Shown here: one piece after another, positions 1 through 12,009 of the stretch
Numbering within the stretch: position 1 is the first letter of the stretch
Layout: each line of letters opens with the position of its first letter
Origin: an uncultured Candidatus Nemicrothrix sp.
GTDB lineage: Bacteria; Actinomycetota; Acidimicrobiia; Acidimicrobiales; Aldehydirespiratoraceae
Assembly (NCBI GenBank): GCA_964344055.1
Contig: CAYFLT010000014.1
Coordinates: 2,632-66,631, forward strand
DNA length: 64,000 nucleotides
Direction of reading: 5' to 3'
Position numbers and translations under genes: made by a program
Notes under the pieces: model-generated
What the model saw: the letters and a program-made list of their open reading frames with translations, nothing else
What the model was told of the DNA's origin: nothing
Database searches by the model: none

Positions 1-149
1 CCGAGGAGGGTCTCCTGCTCGGCCAGCGGGTCGGCCAGCGGTCCGAGGTCACCCGATCCCGCCGCGACGGCGACCCGGTGATGACCGTCATCGCCACCCC
101 TGCCGCCGACGACTCCGCCGTCGACGCCTGGATCACCGACCTGACCTGA
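1..149 (+). CDS. 3' fragment of an unidentified CDS (runs off window start)
   Basis: Frame 3 is open from the window edge with GC-rich third positions. It ends ...SAVDAWITDLT + TGA at 147-149. No recognisable family motif. Confidence 0.3.
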   Translation, partial: EEGLLLGQRVGQRSEVTRSRRDGDPVMTVIATPAADDSAVDAWITDLT

Positions 150-161
150 AACCCCCTTTCG

Positions 162-273
162 CGTTCTGGGTGGGTGAGGTGTCGCTTTCCAGCAGTTGGC
201 CCACCCAGAACGGAAGGCAGTTCGTTCTGGGTGGGTGGGGTGTCGTTTTTCAGCAGTTGGCCCACCCAGAACG
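162..273. repeat. Tandem pair (162-212 and 223-273, 61-nt period) of a 51-nt palindromic element CGTTCTGGGTGGG-N25-CCCACCCAGAACG; likely bidirectional terminator hairpins
   Basis: Both copies have 13-bp perfect inverted termini and differ at only 3 loop positions. The pair lies between convergent stops at 149 (+) and 291 (-). Confidence 0.8.
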
Positions 274-290
274 GTGGTGCGAGGGGGGGA

Positions 291-968
291 TCAGCCGGCG
301 GCGAAGGCGTCGCTGACGTCGCCGGCCACGAACAGGGCTTGGATCTCGCGCTGGTAGACGAAGATCGGGAAGAGCCCGCCGGGGCCGGTCACGTGGCTGG
401 TGATGGTGTGGTCGCCCTTGGTGACGGGCACCAGATGGGTCACGACGAAGGTGATGTCGTAGTCCTGCACCACCCCGCCGAACTCGATCGTCTCGATGCG
501 CTTGTCGAGGGTGGACGGCTGAACGCCGTCGAGCTCGATCCAACCCTCGACGAACTGATTGCCCGTGCCGGTGGCGGTGTCGTCCTCCCCCATCACCGTG
601 GTGGCGGTCACGAGGAGGTATCCGTCCGCCGGGGCGTCGACCTGCAGTGAATGAGTCCGCTCGAGCCCGTTCCCGTTGTCGATCGGGGTCTTGTCCACCG
701 CTTGGGCGGCGGCGGGAGCGAGGTTGTCGTGGTAGCGCTTCGCGAACGTGACGTTCTGGGCGCGGGTCACACCGTCGTCGGGTCCGAATCGGCCGTCTCC
801 GTACCCGGAGGTGATGCCGTTGTCGTTCGCCCATGTGACCGCGTCGGTGTAGAAGGCATTGTCGGGGACGTCGTCGAAGACATGCGTGGCGAGCACGGTG
901 GCCGGAGAGATCAACGCGACGACGAGTACGAAGATCGCGAGTCGGAATCGGGTGATGGTGAAGGTCAT
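291..968 (-). CDS. Secreted protein with N-terminal S-layer-homology (SLH)-like domain
   Basis: Signal peptide MTFTITRFRLAIFVLVVALISPATVLA. SLH-like motif FDDVPDNAFYTDAVTWANDNGITSGYGDGRFGPDDGVTRAQ. ATG at 968 preferred over TTG at 989. Confidence 0.7.
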   Translation of the reverse strand: MTFTITRFRLAIFVLVVALISPATVLATHVFDDVPDNAFYTDAVTWANDNGITSGYGDGRFGPDDGVTRAQNVTFAKRYHDNLAPAAAQAVDKTPIDNGNGLERTHSLQVDAPADGYLLVTATTVMGEDDTATGTGNQFVEGWIELDGVQPSTLDKRIETIEFGGVVQDYDITFVVTHLVPVTKGDHTITSHVTGPGGLFPIFVYQREIQALFVAGDVSDAFAAG

Positions 969-1074
969 GGCACCGCCTGGGTCGAGCAACGTCGGCGACC
1001 CTAGAACGAGTGGGTGAGCGTCGCCCAGCCCGATTTCCTACACTGAGAGTGGTTCCGTCTCGGGGGAGGGATTC

Positions 1075-2175
1075 GTGGAACGTCGCGCCACTATCACCGG
1101 CTGGGGGAAGTGTGTCCCGCCGGTGAAGTTGACCAACGCCGATCTCGAGCAGCTCGTCGACACCAGCAACGACTGGATCATGGACCGGACCGGGATCAGT
1201 GAGCGGGGGATCTCCCACGTGGAGGTCACCGATCTCGCCGAGGTCGCGGCCGAACAGGCGCTGGCAGCGGCCGGTCTCGAGGCCGGTGACATCGACCTGC
1301 TCGTGGCGGCCACGGTCACGCCGGAGATCACCTGCCCCAGCAACGCCTGCTACCTCCAGGAACGAATCGGCGCATCGAACTCCGCGGCGTTCGATCTGAA
1401 CGCGGCGTGTTCGGGTTGGGTCTACGGCACCGCCACGGTGACGTCGATGATCGAGTCGGGTATCGCCGAGCGGGTGCTCCTCGTCGGCGCCGAGAAGCTC
1501 CACTACGTGATGGACTACTACGACCGGGGCCACTGCATCCTGTTCGGTGACGGGGCCGGGGCCGCGGTGTTCGAGGCGTCGACTGCGGGCGACGGCATCC
1601 TGAGCCATGACCTGGGGGCGGATGGCGTGTCCGGTCGCACGATGGTGTTCCCCACGCTCGGAACCCGCGGGGAGATGCTGCGCCCGCGTGATCCGGCCGT
1701 CGATCGGCTCCATTTCGAGGGCCAGGCGGTGTTCAAGCTCGCAGTGAAGGGCATGGCCGCGTCCGTGACCCGGGCGCTGGAGCGGGCCGGGATGGGAGTC
1801 GACGACGTCGATCTCGTCATCCCGCATCAGGCCAACGAACGCATCATCGATGCGGCCATCCGGCGGCTGAAGGTGCCGGCGGAGAAGGTCATGGTGAACA
1901 TCGGCACGCACGGGAACACCGCCGCGGCATCGATCCCGATGGCGCTCTCGGACGCGCTCGACGAGGGACGGATCCAGCCCGGGTCCATCGTTGTGCAGAC
2001 CGCATTCGGTGGCGGCGTCACCTGGGGGTCGACCGTCATGCGCTGGGGCGATCGCGTGGATCCCCTCGGGCACTCCGACCTCGAGCTGCCACCTTGTGAC
2101 AAGTCGGTGTTCGACCTGCTCGCCGACAACCGGGCGTTCTTCGCCCCGTACCACGGCATCCCAGTCGACAACTGA
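1075..2175 (+). CDS. fabH: 3-oxoacyl-ACP synthase III (FabH/KAS III family) with ~40-aa C-terminal tail
   Basis: Catalytic contexts NAACSGW (Cys), IPHQANERI (His) and GNTAAASIP (Asn). GTG start. Extra tail after ...GGGVTWGSTVMRW keeps high GC3. Confidence 0.9.
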   Translation: MERRATITGWGKCVPPVKLTNADLEQLVDTSNDWIMDRTGISERGISHVEVTDLAEVAAEQALAAAGLEAGDIDLLVAATVTPEITCPSNACYLQERIGASNSAAFDLNAACSGWVYGTATVTSMIESGIAERVLLVGAEKLHYVMDYYDRGHCILFGDGAGAAVFEASTAGDGILSHDLGADGVSGRTMVFPTLGTRGEMLRPRDPAVDRLHFEGQAVFKLAVKGMAASVTRALERAGMGVDDVDLVIPHQANERIIDAAIRRLKVPAEKVMVNIGTHGNTAAASIPMALSDALDEGRIQPGSIVVQTAFGGGVTWGSTVMRWGDRVDPLGHSDLELPPCDKSVFDLLADNRAFFAPYHGIPVDN

Positions 2176-2291
2176 CCCGGATCGAGCGGGTCGGCTGGGC
2201 CGAACGGCCCAGGACCACCGGGACCAACTGCCCATCGCGAAACATCGAGAGGGGCCGATCCTGACCGCACCCAGGCGGGCGGAAGGATCCC

Positions 2292-2981
2292 ATGGCCATT
2301 CGAGTGTTCCTCTTGGATGATCACGAGCTCGTGCGCGAGGGCCTGCGTGCCGTTCTCGAGCGGGAGGCCGACATCGAGGTCTGTGGTGAAGCTGCCACCG
2401 CCACCGAGGGGCTCGCTGGAATCGAGGCCACCCGTCCCGACGTGGCGCTGATCGACCTCCTTCTCCCTGATGGGGATGGTCTCGACGTCTGCCGTGGCAT
2501 CTCCGAGCGTTTCCCCGACGTGGCCTGCCTGATCTTGACGTCCTATTCGAATGACGACGTACTGCTCTCCGCGATCCGGGCCAACGCCTCGGGATTCCTG
2601 CTGAAGCGAACGGCCGGGAGCGAGCTGGTGCGCTGCGTGCGGATCGTGGCCGACGGAGGCTCGCTGATCGATCCGGCCCTGACCGGGCGACTGCTCGACC
2701 GGCTTCGCAGCGGAGGGATCGAACAGGGGCATGAGACCGCGCTCGGCAGCTTGAGCCCCCAGGAGCGCCGGCTCCTCGACCATCTGGCGGAAGGGCTGAG
2801 CAATCGCCAGATCGCGGAACGGATGGGTCTCGCCGAGAAGACGGTCAAGAACTATGTCTCGAACCTGCTTCGAAAGCTCAAGATGAGCAGCCGGACCGAG
2901 GTGGCGGTCTACGTCACCAATCTCCGCGCCAGCCAGCAGCGCGAGGATCGCCTTGAGGATGACACCGGACCCATGGGCTGA
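2292..2981 (+). CDS. NarL/FixJ (LuxR-type HTH) response regulator, no adjacent kinase
   Basis: Receiver domain IRVFLLDDHELVREGL ... ALIDLLLPDGDG. C-terminal LuxR HTH LSPQERRLLDHLAEGLSNRQIAERMGLAEKTVKNYVSNLLRKL. Confidence 0.9.
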   Translation: MAIRVFLLDDHELVREGLRAVLEREADIEVCGEAATATEGLAGIEATRPDVALIDLLLPDGDGLDVCRGISERFPDVACLILTSYSNDDVLLSAIRANASGFLLKRTAGSELVRCVRIVADGGSLIDPALTGRLLDRLRSGGIEQGHETALGSLSPQERRLLDHLAEGLSNRQIAERMGLAEKTVKNYVSNLLRKLKMSSRTEVAVYVTNLRASQQREDRLEDDTGPMG

Positions 2982-3033
2982 GGCGCCCGAGGACATGGTC
3001 GGGCCGCGAATCGACCTCGGGTAACTTCGTCGC

Positions 3034-4167
3034 GTGAACAGCGGCGGTGAGAAGCTGAACGAACTCGAGCGAGTGGTCCGCGACCTCCTCAGACCGGAGG
3101 GAGCGAAAGACCCCGAAGCCGTCGTGCGGGCCTGGGAAGGGCCTGACGCGGAGGCCCTGCGGGTAGCAGTAGACGAGCACCGACTGGAAGCGGCGCTGAT
3201 CGACGCGCTCGAACGGGCCGGAGCATCCGTCGATCCCGCCCTGGCCGAGCGGGCCGCGGATGACCGGGTCGTCCGCCTCCTCGCCGGACGGGTGCTCAAC
3301 GACGCAGCAGCCGTGTTCGACGGCGCCGGGATCCGATGGGCCGTGTTCAAGGGGCCGGTCGCGGCCGGTCTCATGCCTCGACCCCATCTTCGCACGTTCA
3401 ACGACCTCGACCTCCTGGTCGAACCGGCGAGGTTCGGTGACGCGATCGATGCGCTGGTCGAGGCGGGGGCGGAGGAGCAGAACCAGAACTGGAGCGCCTA
3501 CCATCGGCATCGCGTCGGTGAGGTGCCGATGGCGATGCGCGACATCACCGTCGATCTCCACTGGCACCTCGTCGGTCTCGGCCGGGACCGCGACACCATG
3601 GCCGTCGACGTCGGAGCGATCCTCGACCGGCTTCGACTGAGAGAGGTGGACGGTCGGGAGCGGCCGATCTTCGCGGCCGAGGATCTGGTCGTCTACCTCG
3701 CGCTCCATGCCGCCCTCGGCGGCGCCACCCGGCTGGACCAGCTGCGGGACCTCGCGGTCGCCATCTCGGCGGACCCGTTGGACTGGGGCGTGGCCGCCGA
3801 ACGAGCGGAGGCGTGGCAGGTGACGCGGCTGGTGGCGCATGCGCTCGATCGGGCGGCCATCCTTCTCGGCGCGCACGTTCCCCCTCCGGTACTCGAACGG
3901 CTCGGGGGGAGAGGGCTCGAACGGCGGCGACGGCTCGACGAGGGTCGGTCCCTCGAGCTTCGGTCGTTCCCGGTCGCCTCGCGCCGGGACCGGCCACGAC
4001 AGGCGGCGAAGGTCCTTTTTCGCCGAGGGTTCCAGCGGGTGTGGTTCCCCGGCCGACAGGGGTGGGACTTCACCGACGAGCGTGGCCGGCTGTACCACGC
4101 CAGGTACGGAGGCGGAGACTCCGCTCGCCGCGAGTTCCTCGAGGCGGTCGCGGCAGGGATGCGCTGA
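3034..4167 (+). CDS. Nucleotidyltransferase family protein (uncharacterised NTP_transf_5 type)
   Basis: Motifs FNDLDLLVEPARFGDAIDALVEAG and DITVDLHWHL are typical of this family. GTG start. The antisense ORFs overlapping it are R/G/P-rich junk. Confidence 0.75.
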   Translation: MNSGGEKLNELERVVRDLLRPEGAKDPEAVVRAWEGPDAEALRVAVDEHRLEAALIDALERAGASVDPALAERAADDRVVRLLAGRVLNDAAAVFDGAGIRWAVFKGPVAAGLMPRPHLRTFNDLDLLVEPARFGDAIDALVEAGAEEQNQNWSAYHRHRVGEVPMAMRDITVDLHWHLVGLGRDRDTMAVDVGAILDRLRLREVDGRERPIFAAEDLVVYLALHAALGGATRLDQLRDLAVAISADPLDWGVAAERAEAWQVTRLVAHALDRAAILLGAHVPPPVLERLGGRGLERRRRLDEGRSLELRSFPVASRRDRPRQAAKVLFRRGFQRVWFPGRQGWDFTDERGRLYHARYGGGDSARREFLEAVAAGMR

Positions 4168-4193
4168 CCTACTGGTCCGAGCCCGGACGCGAA

Positions 4194-4220
4194 TCGAGGG
4201 GCGGCGGAGCCGCCCCTCGA
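4194..4220. terminator. Bidirectional stem-loop TCGAGGGGCGGC-GGA-GCCGCCCCTCGA between convergent genes
   Basis: Perfect 12-bp stem with a 3-nt loop, read directly. Lies between the stop at 4167 (+) and the stop at 4248 (-). Confidence 0.7.
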
Positions 4221-4247
4221 TCGTTCAGATCTGTCAATCTCGCCGGA

Positions 4248-4352
4248 TCAGGTGTCCTGAAGAATCACGCGACGGCTGCCGCGAGGACGGTGATTGCCGA
4301 GGCTGCCCTCGAGCTCGAGCTTGCTCTCGATCGCCGGCTTTTCGTACTGCAT
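4248..4352 (-). CDS. Small ORF, 34 aa (MQYEKPAIESKLELEGSLGNHRPRGSRRVILQDT); candidate RiPP precursor peptide
   Basis: Hand-translated; below the 60-aa cutoff of the ORF track. AGGAGG sits 6 nt upstream of the ATG. YEKP(A)I resembles the YxxP leader motif bound by PqqD-like RRE domains. Followed by the hairpin at 4194-4220 and preceded by a 140-nt lower-GC region. Confidence 0.55.
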   Translation of the reverse strand: MQYEKPAIESKLELEGSLGNHRPRGSRRVILQDT

Positions 4353-4428
4353 GTTCGCCCTCCTGGGGGGATCCGTTGTCGGATCACAGAGATACCACTC
4401 AGAGTGGGATCGATGGAAGCGCGTTGGG

Positions 4429-4453
4429 CTGAAATTGATGTTTCAGTCTGAAA
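4429..4453. promoter_or_regulatory. Possible operator: CTGAAA-N6-TTTCAG-N1-CTGAAA half-site array upstream of the small ORF
   Basis: Palindromic hexamers read directly in the AT-richer spacer, 77-101 nt upstream of the ATG at 4352 on the minus strand. No known binder assigned. Confidence 0.25.
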
Positions 4454-4492
4454 ACGGGCAGTTTGACTCAGATTCCCCCAACGATTGGCGTA

Positions 4493-4888
4493 TCACGTTC
4501 CGTGGTCAGGCCGTGGGGTGCGTCGCCGGAGGCCGATCCGGCGCGCGACCGCTCTCGTCGTGAACGCCAGACGAGCCCATCGACGATCCATCCTCCCGAA
4601 GCGGCGGAGCCGACCCGAGGGGGCTCGGACCGACGCAACACGGCCGATGAGGCGAGTTCTCGGCACCGGTTCGTCGTCGACCAGATTCCCCGTCCCGCGC
4701 CCGGTCACCAGATCGGCGGCGACATGGCGAATCCGGTGGACGAGGACCCGTTCGTGATCGTCGACGAAGGCCCAGATCTCGCCGGGACGGGGCGCATCGC
4801 CATCGACGATCCGAGCCGTCGAACCCGACTCGATCACCCCTCGCATGCTGGTCCCGGTCACCGGCACGTCGATCGGCTCTTGCGTCAC
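4493..4888 (-). CDS. S24/S26 (SipW-like) signal-peptidase-family serine peptidase
   Basis: VTGTSMRGVIESGSTARIV (Ser-Met nucleophile motif), GEIWAFV, LVHRIRH and TGRGTGNLVDDEPV (resembles TKGDANxxxD). GTG at 4888 chosen because ATG at 5074 would overlap the divergent kinase gene. Start uncertain. Confidence 0.6.
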   Translation of the reverse strand: MTQEPIDVPVTGTSMRGVIESGSTARIVDGDAPRPGEIWAFVDDHERVLVHRIRHVAADLVTGRGTGNLVDDEPVPRTRLIGRVASVRAPSGRLRRFGRMDRRWARLAFTTRAVARRIGLRRRTPRPDHGT

Positions 4889-5006
4889 CCGCGTCCGCAG
4901 CAGCTTGGCGGTGGTGTCGGGGTCGGTCGTGCTCACCGGGCTCGACCGTAACCGAGGCGAGGTCCTCCAGCGGTGCTCCTGCGTCGGCTTTGATTGCGTC
5001 GTGGCG

Positions 5007-5927
5007 ATGTCGGATCCGGAGTCGTGGACCCTCGATTGTGGAGGGATCGGTGTTGCGGTCGAGGCTGCCGACACCGAGTTCGGCGCGACCGTTCACCACC
5101 GCCTCGGTGTCGCTCCGATCGAGCGTGAGCCCGAGATCTTCCTCCAGGCCGGCCCGGACGTGCCGGCGCCACCCGACGGTCTCGATCCTCAGGCGCTGGA
5201 GGACTACCTCGGTTGGGACCGGAACGGCGAGGTCTGGATCACCGATGACGACATGGCCGTCCACGTGTCCGGCGGCCGGGTGGTGGTCGGTGGCCGGGTC
5301 GGCGGGGTCGAGGAGGAGGACCGGTTCGATGACCTCCTCCAGTTCGGTGTGGCAGTGGCGGCGGCGACTCCGACTCGACTGATGTTGCACGCCGCGGTGA
5401 TCTCCCGAGGCGACGGGGCGCTGCTCCTCGTCGGCGGCTCGGGTGCGGGCAAGTCGACGCTTGCCGGAGCCGCCCTCGTCGGGGGTTGGACCCTGCTCGG
5501 TGACGACCTCACCGTCGTCGACACGTCTGCGGGAACGGTGCGCGCCGTGCGACGGCCACCGCTCGTGCCTCGGGAGATCGCCGAGCCGCACGGTCTCGAA
5601 GGGACCCCGGAGGACGCTCCTCGTGGACGCACCCAACTCCCGATCGAAGTCCTCGGAACCGGATCACGGCACCTGGTGGGAATCGTCAGTGTCGACCACG
5701 GCACCGCGGGCGCAGTCGGCCGACGGCCGGCGAGGGATCTCGACGTCCTCGACGACGCACTGGCCGTCCCGCCGTTTAGCGGCGTGATCCGCCGTCACCT
5801 GGCGGCGGGCGCCTGGCTCCTCCAGGTGCCCGCGGTGCTGCTCGAACACGCGGTGGACCCGACTCGCCGGGTGCCCCGTGCCATCGAACTGTTGGACGAG
5901 GCCTGGGACCTCTTCGACGCGGGGTGA
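5007..5927 (+). CDS. HPr-kinase-related (HprK C-terminal-like) P-loop kinase
   Basis: LHAAVISRGDGALLLVGGSGAGKSTLAGAALVGGWTLLGDDLTVV matches the HprK C-domain Walker-A region. ATG at 5007 (MSDPESW...) taken as start. Confidence 0.7.
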   Translation: MSDPESWTLDCGGIGVAVEAADTEFGATVHHRLGVAPIEREPEIFLQAGPDVPAPPDGLDPQALEDYLGWDRNGEVWITDDDMAVHVSGGRVVVGGRVGGVEEEDRFDDLLQFGVAVAAATPTRLMLHAAVISRGDGALLLVGGSGAGKSTLAGAALVGGWTLLGDDLTVVDTSAGTVRAVRRPPLVPREIAEPHGLEGTPEDAPRGRTQLPIEVLGTGSRHLVGIVSVDHGTAGAVGRRPARDLDVLDDALAVPPFSGVIRRHLAAGAWLLQVPAVLLEHAVDPTRRVPRAIELLDEAWDLFDAG

Positions 5928-5930
5928 CCG

Positions 5931-6743
5931 TCAGTAGGTGCCCAGCGTTCCGGCCCGTCGTGCGACGGTGACGGCGCGACGAAAGAGCGAGGCACTGGCC
6001 GGTAGGGCCACGACGACGAAGACGAGGAGGAGCGCGATCTCGTCGAGCGCGTCACCGAGGCCGGCATCGGCCTGGGCCAGTGATCGGACGGCCCGGACGC
6101 CGTGCGTCGCCGGGAGGAACTGGGCGACCCCCTCCATCCAGCCGGGCAGTACCGAGAGTGGGTAGAGCGCGCCCGACAACAGCAGGGTGATCTTCTCGGC
6201 TGGGCCGCTGAACGGGTCGCCCCGCTTCACCAGCACGATGAAGGCGGCGGAGAGGATCCCGAAGGGCATGAACGAGGCCGTGGTGAGCAACAGGACCGGA
6301 GTGGCCGCCAGCAGTCCGCTCACGGCGATCCCCGAACCGAAGAAGCCGAGACCGACCGCCACCAGGATGACGGTTTCCACGATGACGAACCCGAGGGGTA
6401 CGACATGGCTGGCCGCGACCAGGGTCCACGTCGGCGTCGGCGTCGTGAGGATCGCTTCGAGCGTCCCTTCGTTCTGCTCCTCGGAGATCTGACCCGCGAA
6501 CGAGGCGAGTCCGACGATCGCGAAGTTCGTGACGATCGCACCCACGAGCACGAACTCGAAGTAGCCGCCACTGAGATCGGCGATCGCGTCGGGATCGCCG
6601 ACGAACTCCCCGATGAAGTAGAAGCTCACCGCGAAGTAGCCGACGTGGACGAGGCGCATCACCAGGTCGACGCGGTAGGAGGTCAGCGTGATGAGCTCCT
6701 TGCGGACCACCGCCCTCACCCGGTTGGCGTTTCCCTGCCTCAT
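5931..6743 (-). CDS. ABC-2 type transporter permease
   Basis: About 6 hydrophobic spans. Overlaps the upstream ATPase gene by 4 nt (ATGA-type coupling). Confidence 0.8.
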   Translation of the reverse strand: MRQGNANRVRAVVRKELITLTSYRVDLVMRLVHVGYFAVSFYFIGEFVGDPDAIADLSGGYFEFVLVGAIVTNFAIVGLASFAGQISEEQNEGTLEAILTTPTPTWTLVAASHVVPLGFVIVETVILVAVGLGFFGSGIAVSGLLAATPVLLLTTASFMPFGILSAAFIVLVKRGDPFSGPAEKITLLLSGALYPLSVLPGWMEGVAQFLPATHGVRAVRSLAQADAGLGDALDEIALLLVFVVVALPASASLFRRAVTVARRAGTLGTY

Positions 6744-7522
6744 GCGGGGTCCGAGCCAGTGCTCTCATCCGCCACGAGGGTCTCGAGGCGGGTGCCGAGT
6801 CCGGTGGGGTCGCCCGCGATCTCGCCGGCGTCGCCCTCCCAGACGATACGGCCAGCGACGAGCGCAACCACCCGGTCACAGGCCAGGACGACCTCGTCCA
6901 GGCGATGGTTCGCCATCAACACCGCACGGCCGTCCTCCGCGAGGGCACGGAGTTGGTCGCAGACCTGGCGGCCGGCGAGCGGATCGAGGCTTCGCGTGGG
7001 TTCGTCGAACACGAGGAGCCCGGGGTCGTGCAACATCGCCCTCGCGATGCCGAGCTGGGCGAGCATCCCCGATGAGTAGCCGAACACGGCCTTGTCCCGG
7101 TGTGCGAGGTCGCGCTCGAGCATCGAGCGATCGACCCGCTCCCGGATGGTCGCCCGGTCGAGCCCGGCGAGGGCACCGAAGTACTCCAGGTTCTGTCGGC
7201 CCGTGAGCCTCCAGTGGAATGACCGTTCCTCGGGGAGCGACAGTCCGAAGCGGGTGGTCACCATGGGGTCGTCGGGCACGACGGGATGGCCGTCGATGGT
7301 GATCGATCCCTCGGTCGGGGCGAGCAGGGTGGTGATGGAGCGGATGAGTGTCGACTTGCCGGCCCCGTTGGGGCCGATCAGGCCCACCACTTCGCCTGCG
7401 TTCACTCGGAGGTTCACACCCTCGAGCGCTCGCACCGGCTCATCGGTGGCGGCTCGCACCAGATGACGCATCAACCCTCTCGGGGGGAGGTACGTCATGC
7501 CGACGCCGGCGACCTCGAGCAT
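6740..7522 (-). CDS. ABC transporter ATP-binding protein (DrrA-like exporter class)
   Basis: Walker A GPNGAGKST, signature-like YSSGMLAQ, Walker B LLVFDEPT. Confidence 0.9.
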   Translation of the reverse strand: MLEVAGVGMTYLPPRGLMRHLVRAATDEPVRALEGVNLRVNAGEVVGLIGPNGAGKSTLIRSITTLLAPTEGSITIDGHPVVPDDPMVTTRFGLSLPEERSFHWRLTGRQNLEYFGALAGLDRATIRERVDRSMLERDLAHRDKAVFGYSSGMLAQLGIARAMLHDPGLLVFDEPTRSLDPLAGRQVCDQLRALAEDGRAVLMANHRLDEVVLACDRVVALVAGRIVWEGDAGEIAGDPTGLGTRLETLVADESTGSDPA

Positions 7523-7524
7523 CG

Positions 7525-7788
7525 TCAGTCGGCGGTGACGAGGGCGGCGTCCGCGAGAGACGCCACGAATTCGGCGATGTCGGCCTCGAGCTCCGACTCC
7601 GACACCCCCTCGAAGCGTTCGGAGAGGTCACGCGCGAGCGCGGCGACATCGCGTTCGCCGTCCAGTTCGTGCCAAATGACGGTGCCCACCGCGTTCAGGG
7701 TCGTGATGACGGAGCCATCGGCGTCGAGGATGACGACACTGTCGCCACTCGGCTCGAAGGTCACGCCCTCGGCGCGTCGGATTCCCAT
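7525..7788 (-). CDS. PqqD-family protein (RiPP recognition element-like)
   Basis: GVTFEPSGDSVVILDADGSVITTLNAVGTVIWHELDGERDVAALARDLSERF... is typical PqqD. GAGGAG sits 6 nt upstream of the ATG at 7788; the ATG at 7854 gives an implausible G/A/R-rich extension. Confidence 0.8.
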   Translation of the reverse strand: MGIRRAEGVTFEPSGDSVVILDADGSVITTLNAVGTVIWHELDGERDVAALARDLSERFEGVSESELEADIAEFVASLADAALVTAD

Positions 7789-7881
7789 GTTCTTCTCCTC
7801 GGCTCGCGTCGCCGCGGGGCCGCGCCCCTTCGGCGCGCCCGACTGACTGCCCATCGGCCGATGTCGCCGGGATGAGAGGAA

Positions 7882-9024
7882 TCAGGGAGCGGTGCGGCCC
7901 CGCCGGTGGGCGCTCTCGGTGAGCGTCTCCTCCTCCACCTCGTGGTGTTGGCGATAGCCCGAGATGAACGCCTGGGCGGTGGCGGCGAAGGGAAGCGCCA
8001 GCAGGGCTCCCACGACACCGAGTAGTGCGGCGCCGGCCAGCACGGAGCCGAACGCCACGGCGACATGCATCTCCATGGTCTGGGCGGTGACCTTGGGAGC
8101 GAACACGTAGTTCTCCACCTGCTGGTAGACGAACACCACGACCAGCACCGCCAACCCCTTCTGGGGATCGTCGAGAAGGGCCACGATGACCGGGAGCGCA
8201 CCGGCGATGTAGGTGCCGACCACGGGGATGAACTGGGACATCACCCCGAGCCAGATGGCCAGCGGAACCGGGAACGGCACGTCGATGACGGTGAACGCGA
8301 TCCAGTGGGCGACCGACGAGAAGATGGCCAGGACCGTCCGCGAGTAGATGTAGCCGCCGGTCTTCTCGATGGCGAGATCCCAGACCGACAGCACCACCCG
8401 CTGGCGCTCCGGTGACAGGAAGGAGCAGACGGTCCGGCGCAGCTTCGGTCCTTCGGCGACGAGGTAGAAGACGAACAGCAGGACCGTGAAGGCCTGGAAC
8501 ACCACGTTGACGATGGTGGTGCCGAGGTTCAACACGTCGTCGGCGAACCGCCCGGCGAGATCCGACACACCACCGCCCTCGACGAACTCGTCACTCAGGC
8601 TCTGCAGGTCGATGTCTTCGTCGACATTGTCCTGGAGCCACTCCTCGAGATCGTCGACGTAGCCGGGGGCCTCACCGATGAACTCGTCGAGCTGGGTGGC
8701 GAGGGCCGTGCCGATCGCGGCGGAGAAGCCGACCATGGCACCGAGCAGGGCGAGATAGACGAGCCAGACCCCCAATCCACGCCGGATGCCCCAGCTCTCG
8801 AGCCGGTTGACGGCGGGCTCGATCGCGAAGGACAGGAACAGGGAGATCAGGACGACGATCAGGAGGGATCGCAGGGATCGCAGTGCCCCGGTGCCGAGAT
8901 AGACGATGACCCATCCGAGCCAGAACAAGCCGATGGCCTTGATCACCCAGAGCGGCACTTTCGCACCCTGGTGCCACGGTGCGTCGTTGTCGATCGGAGC
9001 GGTCGTGTCCTCGGAATCCGCCAT
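7882..9024 (-). CDS. AI-2E family (PerM/UPF0118) transporter
   Basis: About 8 TM spans with family-typical length and pattern (…FLSFAIEPAVNRLE…, …GLAVLVVVFVYQQVENYVFAPKV…). Confidence 0.85.
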   Translation of the reverse strand: MADSEDTTAPIDNDAPWHQGAKVPLWVIKAIGLFWLGWVIVYLGTGALRSLRSLLIVVLISLFLSFAIEPAVNRLESWGIRRGLGVWLVYLALLGAMVGFSAAIGTALATQLDEFIGEAPGYVDDLEEWLQDNVDEDIDLQSLSDEFVEGGGVSDLAGRFADDVLNLGTTIVNVVFQAFTVLLFVFYLVAEGPKLRRTVCSFLSPERQRVVLSVWDLAIEKTGGYIYSRTVLAIFSSVAHWIAFTVIDVPFPVPLAIWLGVMSQFIPVVGTYIAGALPVIVALLDDPQKGLAVLVVVFVYQQVENYVFAPKVTAQTMEMHVAVAFGSVLAGAALLGVVGALLALPFAATAQAFISGYRQHHEVEEETLTESAHRRGRTAP

Positions 9025-9160
9025 CGCGAGGAACCTACTACTTCGGTTGGTTCCAGGGGGTCCTCTCTATACGCTTGTGCCCTCGTGTGAACGGGTTTCC
9101 CGGTCACCGCAATCGACGTCCGTGAAGGCCCCCCGGGGAACCACACGGCAAAACCGATCC

Positions 9161-9241
9161 AACGCTCCGCCGGGCCTGCCCGTGCGGAGCGTTCGCGTGG
9201 AACCCCCGGGCTCCATGCCACGGATACAGCGTGGAACCCCC
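9161..9241 (+). promoter_or_regulatory. Structured leader upstream of rplC: 10-bp hairpin (9161-9170/9184-9193) followed by direct repeat GCGTGGAACCCCC (9195 and 9229)
   Basis: Read directly in the 246-nt divergent intergenic region. Function (promoter or autoregulatory leader) is inferred only. Confidence 0.3.
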
Positions 9242-9270
9242 CAGGTTCTACTGACCCACAGGAAGCAACC

Positions 9271-9912
9271 ATGGCCACCAAGGCGATCGTCGGCGAGAAG
9301 GTCGGCATGACGCAGGTCTGGGACGACGAGAATCGTGTCGTCCCGGTCACCGTCCTGCGCGTGTCCCCGTGCCGTGTCGTGCAGGTCAAGACACCTGAGA
9401 GCGACGGCTACAGCGCCATCCAGGTCACGCTCGGCGTGAAGGATGCGGGCAAGCTCACCCGGCCCGAGGCCGGACACTTCGACAAGGCCGGCGTCGACCC
9501 GGGCCGCACGCTCGTCGAGCTGCGCCTCGACGACGTCAGCGAGTTCACGGTCGGACAGGAGATCGGCGCCGATGTCCTCGAGGCCGGCGAGCTGGTGGAT
9601 GTCACCGGCGTGTCGAAGGGCAAGGGGTTCACCGGTGTGATGAAGCGTCACGGCTTCGGCGGCGGTCCCGCCAGCCACGGCGCCCACAAGATCCACCGCA
9701 AGCCGGGAGCGGTCGGCCAGTGCGCCACGCCGAGCCGGGTGTTCAAGGGCAAGAAGCTGCCCGGTCGCCACGGTGCCTCCAAGGTCACCACCTTGAACCT
9801 CGAGGTCGTGAAGGCGGATCCCGAAGCCGAGATCCTCCTCGTGAAGGGCTCGGTTCCGGGCCCCCGGGGCGCCACCGTCGTGATCCGCGACGCGGTCAAG
9901 GGAGGCAACTGA
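9271..9912 (+). CDS. rplC: 50S ribosomal protein L3
   Basis: GMTQVWDD..., FTGVMKRHGFGGGPASHG. Confidence 0.97.
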   Translation: MATKAIVGEKVGMTQVWDDENRVVPVTVLRVSPCRVVQVKTPESDGYSAIQVTLGVKDAGKLTRPEAGHFDKAGVDPGRTLVELRLDDVSEFTVGQEIGADVLEAGELVDVTGVSKGKGFTGVMKRHGFGGGPASHGAHKIHRKPGAVGQCATPSRVFKGKKLPGRHGASKVTTLNLEVVKADPEAEILLVKGSVPGPRGATVVIRDAVKGGN

Positions 9913-9914
9913 TC

Positions 9915-10628
9915 ATGGCATCGGTCAAGGTCAAGACCCAGGCCGGCAAGGACGCCGGCACCGCCGAACTCGACGACGCCGTCTTCGGCATCGAGCCGAA
10001 CATGCCGGTGATGCACCAGGTCGTCACCGCCCAGCTCGCCGCCAAGCGGGCCGGCACCCACTCCACCAAGACCCGTCGTGAGGTCCGGGGTGGCGGCGCC
10101 AAGCCGTGGCGCCAGAAAGGCACGGGCCGAGCCCGGGCCGGCAGCTCCAATGTCCCCCACTGGCGTGGTGGTGGCGTGGCCCACGGCCCGAAGCCCCGCG
10201 ACTACAGCCAGCGCACCCCCAAGAAGATGGTGCGGCTCGCGCTCCACTCCGCCCTGTCGGACCGGGCCAGCGAGGGCAACGTGATCGTCGTCGACTCGTG
10301 GTCGTTCGACACTCCGAAGACCAAGGACGGACAGGCGGCGCTCGACGCGGTCGGGGCCGAGGGCAAGGTCCTCGTCGTACTCGGCGATGGCGACGTCAAC
10401 GCCTGGAAGAGCTTCCGCAACCTCACCAACGTGCACTGCCTCCACGTGGGTGAGCTCAACACCTACGACGTGCTCGACAACGACGTCGTCGTGTTCACCC
10501 AGGAGACCCTCCCCGTCGCCACCGAGATCCGCCGCGGCACCCACGCCCCGGCCGCCTCGGTGAGCAGCGACAGCGAGGACAGCATCGAGAGCCTCGACTC
10601 CGAGGACTCCCTGGAGGAGGAAGAGTGA
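9915..10628 (+). CDS. rplD: 50S ribosomal protein L4 (acidic Ser/Glu C-terminal tail)
   Basis: [15 protein letters not shown] motif. ATG at 9915, 2 nt after the rplC stop. Confidence 0.95.
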
Positions 10629-10915
10629 AGGACCATCGTGACGTCCTCATCCGGCCGGTGGTGTCGGAGAAGTCCTACGGCCTCCTCGAGGAGAACGTCT
10701 ACACCTTCGTCGTCGCCCCGAGCGCGTCGAAGCCCGAGATCCGCGACGCCGTCGAAGCTCTGTTCGACGTGTCGGTCGTGAAGGTCAACACCCTCAACCG
10801 TCAGGGCAAGCGCAAGCGCAACCGCCGCACCGGTGGGTGGGGTCAGCGCCCCAGCCAGAAGCGTGCCCTCGTCACCCTCGCCGAGGGTGACTCGATCGAT
10901 CTCTTCGAGGCCTGA
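10625..10915 (+). CDS. rplW: 50S ribosomal protein L23
   Basis: [10 protein letters not shown]...YTFVV. GTGA overlap with the rplD stop. Confidence 0.95.
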
Positions 10916-10917
10916 TC

Positions 10918-11725
10918 ATGGCGATCCGCAAGCGCAAGCCCACCAGCCCCGGTCGTCGGTTCCAGACGTCCTCGGACTTCTCCGAGATCACCAAGACCAC
11001 GCCCGAGAAGAGCCTGTTGGCGCCCAAGTCCAAGACGGGCGGGCGCAACAACTACGGCCGAAAGACCTCGCGTCACCGCGGTGGTGGCCACAAGCAGCAG
11101 TACCGGGTGATCGACTTCAAGCGCACCAAGGACGGCGTCCCCGCCACCGTGGCCGCCGTCGAGTACGACCCGAACCGCACCTGCAACATCGCTCTTCTCC
11201 ACTACCACGACGGTGAGAAGCGCTACATCCTCGCTCCCCGCGACCTGCAGGTCGGCGACAAGCTCGAGTCGGGCCAGCATGCCGAGATCCGTTCCGGCAA
11301 CGCCCTGCCGCTGCGCTACATCCCGGTCGGTACCACCGTCCACAATGTCGAGCTGAAGGCCGGCGCCGGCGCCAAGCTGGGCCGCTCGGCCGGCACCGCC
11401 ATCCAGCTGGTGGCCAAGGAGGGCGACTTCGCCACCCTGCGCCTGCCCAGCACCGAGATGCGCCGGGTCCCGATCGACTGCCGGGCCACGGTCGGCGAGG
11501 TCGGCAACGCCCAGCACGAACTCATCAAGATCGGCAAGGCCGGCCGCAATCGCTGGAAGGGCGTCAAGCCCCAGTCCCGCGGTGTGGTCATGAACCCGGT
11601 CGACCACCCCCATGGCGGTGGTGAAGGCAAGACCTCGGGTGGTCGCCACCCGGTCTCCCCGTGCCCACAAGGAATCCGACAAGTTGATCGTGCGCCGTCG
11701 CCGGACGCGCGGTTCGCGGAGGTAA
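10918..11725 (+). CDS. rplB: 50S ribosomal protein L2, 3' end disrupted (frame change near 11661; conserved tail [16 protein letters not shown]-stop in +1 frame ends at 11725)
   Basis: Perfect L2 up to ...[24 protein letters not shown]. The universal WG-P-G--TR segment is missing. As sequenced, the ORF reads through into rpsS (track ORF 10918-12009). Confidence 0.85.
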
Positions 11726-11730
11726 CTGAG

Positions 11731-12009
11731 ATGCCGCGCAGCCTGAAGAAGGGTCCGTTCGTCGACGACCACCTCCTGAAGAAGGTCGACGCCCTGAACG
11801 AGACCGGTGAGAAGAAGGTCATCAAGACCTGGTCCCGCCGCTCCACCATCATCCCCGACATGATCGGCCACACGCTGGCCGTCCACGACGGCCGCAAGCA
11901 CGTGCCGGTGTACATCACCGAATCGATGATCGGCCACAAGCTCGGCGAGTTCGCTCCCACGCGGACGTTCAAGTTCCACGCCGGTCAGGAACGGGGAGCT
12001 CGCCGATGA
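11731..12009 (+). CDS. rpsS: 30S ribosomal protein S19
   Basis: [19 protein letters not shown]...[13 protein letters not shown]. Confidence 0.95.

Follow-up and report, generated by a model that had tools for sequence, protein, structure and literature searches.

A probable linear-peptide gene cluster with lasso-type tailoring genes, a Sec11/SipW-like peptidase and no lasso cyclase in an uncultured Candidatus Nemicrothrix

The closest described relatives of the gene cluster reported here are the lasso peptide clusters of the paeninodin/pseudomycoidin type, which occur in Bacillota and also in proteobacterial versions (our examples are from Acidovorax, Bacillus, Paenibacillus and Halobacillus; loci L007, L008, L009 and L020, respectively). 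Such clusters encode a cyclase (C), a precursor (A), an HprK-like kinase (K), a PqqD protein (B1), a B2 protease, an NTP_transf_5 nucleotidyltransferase (N) and an ABC exporter (D). PqqD-family proteins act as recognition elements (RREs) that bind the leaders of RiPPs (ribosomally synthesised peptides that are modified after translation); in lasso systems, B1 binds the Y-x-x-P region of the leader and hands the peptide to B2. HprK homologues from lasso clusters phosphorylate a serine of the linear precursor, and in the pseudomycoidin pathway the nucleotidyltransferase of the cluster puts a hexose on the phosphoserine; paeninodin and pseudomycoidin both keep the phosphate (PMC8498205). Lasso precursors carry a threonine at position -2 of the leader (PMC10368454). 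Here we describe a cluster of seven genes at positions 3034-7788 of a 64-kb stretch (the window) of contig CAYFLT010000014.1, from an uncultured Candidatus Nemicrothrix sp. An initial annotation had read this cluster as a candidate RiPP-type system without a lasso cyclase, and all seven of the genes it had placed there appear, at or near those positions, in a listing of the open reading frames (ORFs) from 1 to 12000.

The window cluster and the paeninodin-type clusters have in common a PqqD-family RRE, an HprK-like P-loop kinase, an NTP_transf_5 protein, an ABC exporter and a short precursor whose leader bears a Y/W-x-x-P-x-[LIV] motif. Over 90 aa, the kinases of the window and of the Bacillus lasso cluster (L008) are 39% identical, and the nucleotidyltransferase is 24-28% identical over ~250 aa to the NTP_transf_5 proteins of the Bacillus and Paenibacillus lasso clusters (L008/L009). 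However, the window cluster has neither an asparagine synthetase-like cyclase nor a transglutaminase-like B2, and its proposed leader protease is a Ser-His enzyme of clan SF that is non-homologous to B2. The precursor has no conserved Thr near the leader end (position -2) and no ring-forming Asp or Glu; its conserved Ser is internal (R-G-S), whereas that of paeninodin is C-terminal; and the exporter is of a two-gene ABC-2 type rather than the fused ABC_membrane type. Judged as a lasso cluster, the locus has the PqqD-like RRE and a Y-x-[KR]-P-x-I motif, and lacks the cyclase, the B2 protease, the Thr at -2 and the Asp or Glu at core position 7-9; the definition of a lasso precursor also asks for G, A, S or C as the first core residue. 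We conclude that it is probably a complete, functional RiPP-type cluster with a linear product, whose parts share their ancestry with paeninodin/pseudomycoidin-type lasso clusters. We are more confident that a functional RiPP-type system of some kind acts on the 34-aa peptide encoded here, which we regard as likely. The architecture is new, and the product class is probably new; the cluster can be likened to a lasso pathway minus its ring-forming step, with the protease swapped.

To look for lasso machinery, we used three cyclases and four B2 proteases from the Bacillota and Acidovorax lasso clusters (L007-L009 and L020) as phmmer queries against all ORFs of at least 80 aa in the 64-kb window and in eight loci of its clade (E<=0.01). 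No match to the asparagine synthetase-like cyclase (C protein; PF00733) or to the transglutaminase-like B2 (PF13471) was found in this set, and no fragment of either was detected. The controls were positive: Bacillus cyclase queries found the Acidovorax cyclase at 1e-33 to 1e-39, and B2 queries matched one another across phyla at 1e-19 to 1e-22. Likewise, precomputed Pfam neighbourhoods of 13 clade loci (L001-L006, L010-L018) contained no Asn_synthase or Transglut_core3 domain within 9-10 kb. Hence the absence of both enzymes that had been noted from the window holds up, as does the distinctness of the cluster from a lasso remnant, which had been made to depend on whether homologous clusters always sit beside a cyclase/B2 pair: the 13 clade loci have neither gene. 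The cores themselves point the same way. None of the 12 cores from the window's clade has Asp or Glu at positions 7-9, and five of them have no acidic residue at all; without Asp or Glu at these positions there is no macrolactam acceptor, so a lasso is impossible. We conclude that the cluster is not a lasso cluster, nor is it what remains of one.

The core module consists of PqqD, kinase, peptidase, one or more precursor genes and NTP_transf_5, together with the pair of ABC ATPase and ABC-2 permease genes where these are kept. It lies at one of two unrelated chromosomal sites, and the six-to-seven-gene set is intact at both. At the first site the module is between rpsJ and rplC, together with fabH, a response regulator gene and an AI-2E transporter gene (L001-L004, L006); at the second it is between rsgA and a molybdopterin oxidoreductase gene (L005, L010-L018). 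The window shares the rpsJ/rplC synteny as far as the window reaches.

The precursor gene (4248-4352, minus strand, counted from the first ATG of the ORF) encodes the 34-aa peptide MQYEKPAIESKLELEGSLGNHRPRGSRRVILQDT, with leader MQYEKPAIESKLELEGSL. Several features of the DNA support the view, already taken in the initial annotation, that this small ORF is a gene. A Shine-Dalgarno sequence, AGGAGGG (4358-4364, minus strand; read directly from the sequence), ends 5 nt upstream of the ATG at 4352, and GGAGG or GAGG motifs likewise precede the homologous small ORFs. Directly 3' of the stop codon is a terminator-like GC hairpin (4193-4221, minus strand) with a 13-bp GC stem and a minimum free energy of -45.9 kcal/mol (z -3.8; 0 of 200 shuffles fold as well); it sits between two convergent genes, since the NTP_transf_5 gene ends at 4167, and it was missed by a simple terminator scan because it has no T-run. 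The GC content of the ORF by codon position (0.66/0.43/0.77) is coding-like and resembles that of the neighbouring genes, and the ORF has already been called as a protein on four contigs of a public protein collection. A scan of 4100-5100 for sigma-70 promoters returned nothing.

Every related locus has one to three such small ORFs, placed between the peptidase and NTP_transf_5 genes, so the peptide is conserved beside each homologous cluster, as the initial reading of the locus had required. We aligned 12 precursors from nine distinct loci of the window's clade. Their leaders follow the pattern M-x-Y-x-[KR]-P-x-I-x5-L-x-G-x-L, and anchoring on the Tyr defines a 16-residue block, Y-[EQDNS]-[KR]-P-x-I-x-x-x-[VMLIF]-x-[LV]-x-[GA]-x-[LM], in which Y, P, I, the K/R position and the final L/M are kept in 12/12 precursors, the L in 11/12 and the G in 10/12. 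Over the leader's 16 codons we counted 198 codon pairs with synonymous differences, a pattern that fits selection on the leader at the protein level. The cores that follow are 14-26 residues long, hypervariable and, apart from the serine motif described below, unalignable; they are rich in Gly (23%), Arg (23%) and Lys (10%). Examples are GNHRPRGSRRVILQDT in the window, GGRRRRRRRGGRGSGNYQPQPV in L005, MKGKGKAKGKGRGSRRRQLK in L006 and GGGPKGGPKGGPKGGYGSGGFIVKLN in L001. In two loci the precursor genes are in tandem, with near-identical leaders and different cores (L012 9602-9970 and L015 9701-10040, with two or three copies); the third precursor gene of L015 has a GTG start that overlaps the stop codon of the second. 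At the level of sequence, then, the small ORF has the hallmark of a RiPP precursor gene: the leader is conserved and the core hypervariable. Consistent with membership of RiPPs in general, such a precursor is co-located with an RRE, tailoring enzymes and a protease across lineages.

The one recurrent feature of the cores is a serine, which lies in R-G-S in 8/12 window-clade cores, in Y-G-S in one (L001) and in F-S-[KI] in the remaining three. For the window peptide, this makes Ser26, within P-R-G-S-R-R, the candidate modification site. When 24 candidate precursors from distant metagenome loci are added to the 12, a core Ser is present in all 36, is the only one in 22 and is next to Gly in 28. 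The nominal P of ~6e-9 for this statistic treats the peptides as independent; as they are related to one another and rich in Gly and Ser, it should be taken as an upper bound for the significance. The C-terminal Thr34 was considered as a conserved modification site and rejected, as the C-termini are not conserved across precursors. Serine as the modified residue thus agrees with the paeninodin example that had been cited for this cluster, while its position does not: the site is likely to be internal rather than C-terminal.

The peptidase gene (4493-4936, minus strand) encodes a protein of 147 aa that we propose as the leader peptidase. No Pfam family matched it, and TIGR02228 (archaeal/SipW-type signal peptidase I) did so at E 1e-5, with 25.4 bits against a cut-off of 51.85. 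A profile built from six family members matches human SEC11A/C among PDB sequences at E 3e-5, aligning S-M with SGSMEP, V-H-R-[IV] with VHRV, and G-R-G-T-G-N..D-D with TKGDNN..DD; the motifs invariant across 23 sequences of two phyla are G-x-S30-M, H67-R68 and G81..N84...D88. Foldseek matched an AlphaFold2 model of the protein (predicted local distance difference test score, pLDDT, 92) to the LexA C-domain, SEC11A/C, SpsB and lambda cI; by this structural match, the clan-SF beta-barrel fold is common to the peptidase and the signal peptidases. The protein lacks hydrophobic segments (maximum 19-residue Kyte-Doolittle value, 0.37), so no transmembrane segment is present; it is thus soluble, though related to the Ser-His (Sec11/SipW) branch of signal peptidases, and is predicted to be cytoplasmic. 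Compared with Sec11, SipW and the archaeal signal peptidase I (S26B), it shares the catalytic boxes and the fold but lacks a transmembrane anchor, is only 147 aa long and has a basic C-terminal helix; moreover, unlike signal peptidase I, it is partnered with a PqqD protein and with a leader peptide that has no signal-peptide features. The gene had been annotated as an S24/S26 peptidase at 4493-4888. Profile and fold agree with that identity; the start, however, is probably the GTG at 4936, because a block conserved at the protein level, DPD.TA[KR]LLR, lies upstream of the GTG at 4888.

The kinase gene (5007-5927, plus strand) encodes a 306-aa HprK/ScmC-like P-loop protein that we propose as the precursor Ser kinase. 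The Pfam family Hpr_kinase_C did not match it. Its best NCBIfam match is TIGR04352, HprK-related kinase A (E 1.2e-14; 54.2 bits against a cut-off of 200), to which only residues 170-238 align, and its homologues carry a precomputed PF27840 ScmC assignment. Nine kinase sequences share as invariant residues H128 (in an H..A motif), G143-x-S-G-x-G-K-S-T151 and G165-D-D167, a layout that corresponds to the HprK arrangement of a Walker A motif (GxSGxGKS) followed ~20 residues later by an acidic DD. Among PDB sequences a profile of the kinases found P-loop noise only, with HprK at E 0.37. The AlphaFold2 model (pLDDT 89.5) was matched by Foldseek to ATP-dependent phosphoenolpyruvate carboxykinase (PEPCK) over its whole length (E 4e-8) and to HprK/P catalytic domains at E 7e-5 to 1e-3, with target-normalised template modelling scores of 0.28-0.57 for HprK/P (~0.5-0.57 for the L. 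casei catalytic-domain chains). ATP-dependent PEPCK and the HprK/P catalytic domains form one structural superfamily. From the model, the motifs and the NCBIfam match, we conclude that the predicted fold of the protein is that of an HprK/PEPCK P-loop enzyme, in line with its first description as an HPr kinase-related P-loop kinase. The kinases are 50-66% identical in at least nine lineages.

The remaining three activities were correctly named in the initial annotation. The nucleotidyltransferase-fold tailoring enzyme (3034-4167, plus strand; 377 aa) matches NTP_transf_5 (PF14907) at E 1.3e-31, with 110.6 bits against a gathering threshold of 31.2 and over profile positions 5-249 of 249; it had no match among PDB sequences, and NTP_transf_5 genes are present in the clusters of L001-L006 and L010-L018. 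The PqqD-family protein (7525-7788, minus strand; 87 aa), which we propose as the leader-binding RRE, matches PF05402 at E 1.5e-15, and the lasso PqqD models of NCBIfam (NF033530 and NF033536) at E 2e-8 and 4e-5, below their cut-offs; the 87-aa form is the gene call of the public collection, and homologues of 79-87 aa occur in all related loci. The proposed exporter is composed of an ABC-2 type permease (5931-6743, minus strand; 270 aa; PF01061 E 8.8e-15) and a DrrA-like ABC transporter ATPase (6740-7522, minus strand; 260 aa; PF00005 E 2.7e-26; TIGR01188 drrA E 2.6e-50, below cut-off), with a 4-nt overlap between the ATPase gene's end and the permease start. Both ABC genes are kept in most related loci and absent from L015/L016. 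With these matches and the motif and fold evidence for the kinase, the support from profile searches that the initial annotation had called for is in place for the PqqD, HprK-like and NTP_transf_5 proteins.

We propose a pathway that, taken in full, is at best a reasonable probability. The 34-aa precursor would be translated first, and its leader, M-x-Y-x-[KR]-P-x-I-x5-L-x-G-x-L, would be bound by the 87-aa PqqD-family recognition protein. Guided by this RRE, the HprK/ScmC-like kinase would phosphorylate the conserved Ser26 of the core. The NTP_transf_5 enzyme may then add a group to the phosphate (a sugar or a nucleotidyl group, by analogy with pseudomycoidin) or to the peptide. The soluble cytoplasmic Ser-His peptidase, in place of the lasso B2 cysteine protease, would remove the leader, presumably by cutting after the conserved G-x-[LM], and the ABC-2 transporter would export a short (~16-residue), strongly basic product. 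We infer every chemical step, the order of the steps, the dependence of kinase and peptidase on the RRE, export and any biological activity. The analysis itself shows the gene set, the folds with their catalytic motifs, a precursor with conserved leader, variable core and invariant Ser, and the consistent absence of cyclase and B2. The scheme has the same outline as the leader-guided, modified, signal peptidase-like-cleaved and exported peptide suggested at the outset. Phosphorylation of Ser is its best-supported element and the chemistry of the nucleotidyltransferase its least.

Several observations weigh against the proposed pathway. Kinase and peptidase both score under the cut-offs of all named families, so their substrates are not transferable by annotation. 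The conserved leader ends in Leu or Met, and signal peptidases normally prefer small residues at -1. In the window's clade, the PqqD gene adjoins neither the peptidase gene nor the precursor gene. In low-complexity cores rich in Gly and Ser, a Ser is to be expected more often than in average sequence, and the loci without ABC genes (L015/L016) mean that export is not universal. Lastly, a C-terminal Ser is the reported recognition site of the paeninodin kinase (PMC8498205), and the Ser here is internal.

It is also conceivable, though unlikely, that the cluster makes a RiPP of another kind: the kinase might activate Ser for elimination to dehydroalanine, as in class III/IV lanthipeptides, or for some other transfer, leaving no final phosphate, or the product might act inside the cell, for example as an Arg-rich peptide binding nucleic acid or the ribosome. 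Phosphorylation followed by elimination is an established RiPP strategy, but Pfam and NCBIfam recognised no lyase or elimination domain in the cluster, and the closest precedents, paeninodin and pseudomycoidin, keep their phosphate. Poly-Arg/Gly cores such as RRRRRRRGGRGSG do resemble nucleic-acid-binding peptides, L015/L016 have no dedicated exporter, and in one lineage the cluster is inside a region of ribosomal-protein genes; however, that location is not conserved, and an ABC-2 exporter is encoded in the window and in most of its relatives.

Less probable still is that the enzymes act on a polymer of the cell envelope or on a small molecule, with the small ORF coding for a micropeptide that is regulatory or unrelated. 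Glycans and teichoic acids are common cargoes of ABC-2 transporters, the NTP_transf_5 family is functionally undefined, a related module in Ammoniphilus (L021, see below) is found among exopolysaccharide genes, and the link from enzymes to substrate is one that we draw. Yet PqqD-family proteins are peptide-binding modules in every characterised case, and the small ORF accompanies the module in all contexts, with a lasso-like RRE-binding motif. Moreover, L012 and L015 have two or three copies of it, a multiplication often seen for RiPP precursors, and L015/L016 keep peptide, PqqD, kinase, peptidase and nucleotidyltransferase in the absence of the ABC genes. Finally, the idea that the cluster is a degenerate, decaying or non-functional remnant of a paeninodin-type lasso cluster that has lost its cyclase and B2 is scarcely credible: although the kinase, NTP_transf_5 and PqqD proteins are most similar to those of isolate lasso clusters (L007 Acidovorax, L008 Bacillus and L009 Paenibacillus) and the leader resembles the lasso Y-x-x-P-x-L motif, all ORFs are intact, the kinases are well conserved in at least nine lineages, the cyclase-less set occupies two chromosomal positions and recurs across dozens of metagenome loci, the leader appears to be under purifying selection, the cores have no lasso acceptor residue, a different, dedicated protease is always present, and fragments of cyclase or B2 were not detected in the window or the eight clade loci searched. 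We therefore retain the reading of the cluster as a functional RiPP-type system with a linear product.

A P-loop HprK-like protein is likewise partnered with a PqqD-family protein in two other systems, HPr-rel-A (TIGR04352) and SynChlorMet (ScmC/ScmD). For both, the window kinase scores below the cut-off (54.2 bits against 200 for TIGR04352, and 17.8 against 125 for ScmC), the window PqqD protein scores 31.1 bits against a cut-off of 100 for ScmD (TIGR04248), and no HPr-rel-A PqqD model is among its listed matches. In addition, there is no radical-SAM family among the neighbours of the cluster in the window or in the precomputed neighbourhoods of its relatives. Hence, the cluster falls outside the lasso, HPr-rel-A and SynChlorMet systems, and its peptidase is not a bona fide signal peptidase I. 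To our knowledge, HPr-rel-A and SynChlorMet are themselves functionally uncharacterised. In the full-text literature searched, which excludes most subscription journals, we found only papers on lasso-linked kinases and nucleotidyltransferases; neither a cyclase-less version nor a PqqD/signal peptidase-like pair is described there.

The peptidase belongs to a wider family. A profile search returned 361 proteins in two groups, one of them Actinomycetota proteins from metagenome-assembled genomes (47-57% identity to the window peptidase) and the other Bacillota proteins annotated as 'signal peptidase I' or 'S24/S26 family peptidase' (20-24% identity; seven aligned). An exhaustive search of 1.84 billion representatives clustered at 50% identity gave 3,662 family representatives at E<=1e-10. 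Some representatives are longer, and we considered that they might be PqqD-peptidase fusions; this was rejected, as they have no PqqD domain, and their extra length probably reflects over-called starts. In a contig search with a profile of the aligned kinases, generic P-loop matches drowned the signal: only three loci came back, all of them lasso clusters of other phyla, and the window's own lineage was missed. A weak PqqD match in Bacillota, WgkC, is irrelevant, since it belongs to the tryglysin radical-SAM system.

The Bacillota peptidase gene comes straight after genes for an ScmC-like P-loop protein and a PqqD protein. This Bacillota module, to which ABC and NTP_transf_5 genes may be added, is found beside lasso clusters in L008, L009 and L020 and alone in L021. 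Its peptidase is homologous to that of the window (S-M, H-R and G..N...D boxes; blastp E 7e-14 against L008 in a small local database), and it likewise has a P-loop kinase-like gene, NTP_transf_5 and, nearby, a precursor with Y-x-x-P and a Gly/His-rich tail; PqqD is directly upstream of the peptidase. It differs from the window cluster in that peptidase identity is only 20-24%, the P-loop protein is a ~260-aa ScmC-like protein rather than a 306-aa HprK-rel-A-like one, the leader is longer and different (…P-I-[KR]-F-E-T-[AS]-Q-S-W-N-K-G-H-G…), and the module is often joined to a complete lasso cluster. We found no characterisation of it in the literature searched. PqqD and peptidase genes are adjacent or overlap, in that order, in Bacillota and in at least ten metagenome loci, and this order matches the B1-B2 order of the lasso clusters L008 and L020.

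Where the Bacillota module adjoins a complete paeninodin-type lasso cluster, it forms a second gene set (L008 4952-7285, Bacillus; L009 3011-6357, Paenibacillus; L020 8789-12910, Halobacillus) made up of a precursor, the ScmC-like P-loop protein, PqqD and peptidase, with an ABC transporter in L009 and L020 and a second NTP_transf_5 gene in L020 only. The precursors of these second sets form a family with the pattern …Y-x-x-P-x-V…P-I-[KR]-F-E-T-[AS]-Q-S-W-N-K-G-H-G followed by Gly/His/Pro-rich tails (for example, MKKVYEAPEVLDHRPIKFETSQSWNKGHG…). In L021 (7308-11396, Ammoniphilus oxalaticus), the NTP_transf_5, ScmC-like, PqqD and peptidase genes are unaccompanied by lasso genes; we found no convincing precursor in this locus. 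The L021 module is between sinR-like and sinI-like genes and next to exopolysaccharide genes, a setting that recalls the sinR/sinI-tapA-sipW-tasA neighbourhood of B. subtilis.

A metagenome scan added 50 further loci, many of them on short contigs, with peptidases 33-51% identical to that of the window. Local hidden Markov models detected PqqD in 22 of these loci, the kinase in 24 and NTP_transf_5 in 10, and picked up ABC genes in several; the gene order varies. None of the 50 loci has a B2 protease, and a cyclase-like gene is present in one only (L036). That locus (L036 49-3145) has, in this order, an Asn_synthase gene cut by the contig end, an NTP_transf_5 gene and a SipW-like peptidase gene, and may be a lasso-type cluster that uses a SipW-like peptidase instead of B2. 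In a lower-GC subgroup, the PqqD and peptidase genes overlap (L024 6738-7420, L025 1010-2839 and L035 6669-7420) and there are Cys-containing precursors (MKYTTPAVTRTALAGVLEDKCWDGSMYLCDK and MNYTTPVLIRTNLAGELDISREHCKFDGSVLLGCRDL in L025); no kinase gene was found in the 7 kb upstream in L024, L025 or L035. This suggests that the RRE/peptidase pair serves other chemistries too. The common denominator of the loci is a PqqD protein, a soluble Ser-His peptidase and a peptide with a Y-x-x-P leader, to which different tailoring enzymes are joined. We tentatively propose, as a possibility on which we do not insist, that a PqqD protein and a soluble Sec11/SipW-like peptidase are an unrecognised, widespread pair for leader recognition and removal, a counterpart of lasso B1/B2, which in the window's branch would act together with an HprK-like kinase and an NTP_transf_5 enzyme in the making of linear, polycationic, Gly/Arg/Lys-rich peptides carrying phospho-, phosphoglycosyl- or nucleotidyl-serine at R-G-S.

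If correct, this would define a RiPP family by Ser phosphorylation and further decoration on a linear cationic peptide, with the lasso RRE, kinase and nucleotidyltransferase re-used without a cyclase. The exchange of the cysteine protease B2 for a cytoplasmic relative of signal peptidases would be a non-homologous replacement within a biosynthetic pathway; we know of no other RiPP system that uses a leader protease of the Sec11/SipW type. The poly-Arg/Gly composition of the cores suggests a membrane- or nucleic-acid-directed activity. The 36 natural precursor sequences, with their simple, recognisable leader and single conserved Ser, are ready material for tests. For the NTP_transf_5 family, we know of one in vivo observation (pseudomycoidin) and no in vitro biochemistry.

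The cluster is flanked by a gene for a response regulator with REC and GerE domains (2292-2981, plus strand; NarL/FixJ-type; Pfam Response_reg 4e-22, GerE 3.7e-19) and one for an AI-2E family transporter (7882-9024, minus strand; PF01594 E 5.7e-65). Both flanks had been pointed out earlier, the first as a LuxR-type orphan regulator. It is indeed an orphan, since neither the window nor L001-L006 has a histidine kinase gene adjoining it, but its domains are those of a REC-GerE response regulator and not of an autoinducer-binding LuxR protein. Only the ribosomal-operon lineage (L001-L004, L006) has the response regulator gene next to the cluster, and L005 and L010-L018 lack it; the AI-2E transporter gene is similarly confined to the L001-L004/L006 lineage. 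We considered both as members of the cluster and rejected them, as they are not conserved with the core genes. PADLOC gave no defence-system match beyond generic similarity to the ABC ATPase. Across all 64 kb of the window, and in spite of the long ribosomal-protein region, no tRNA or tmRNA gene turned up and every Rfam family stayed below its gathering score.

The genes rpsJ (S10) and rplC (L3) are normally adjacent in the S10 operon. In the closest relatives of the window (L001 3704-14967; L002, L003, L004 and L006), they are split by a block of ~10 kb that contains genes for an SLH-domain protein, a hypothetical protein, fabH, the REC-GerE regulator, the peptide cluster and the AI-2E transporter. 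Positions 1-9912 of the window have the same order, from the hypothetical gene to rplC, in agreement with the fabH and ribosomal-operon neighbours that had been noted for the cluster. Further into the ribosomal-protein region, one ORF runs from rplB (L2) straight into rpsS (S19) (10918-12009, and 11612-11725); the usual C-terminus of L2 lies in another frame, and L001 keeps the two genes apart (278 and 92 aa). The run-on probably stems from an indel or frameshift at about 11.65 kb, for which misassembly of the metagenome-assembled genome is the most likely cause.

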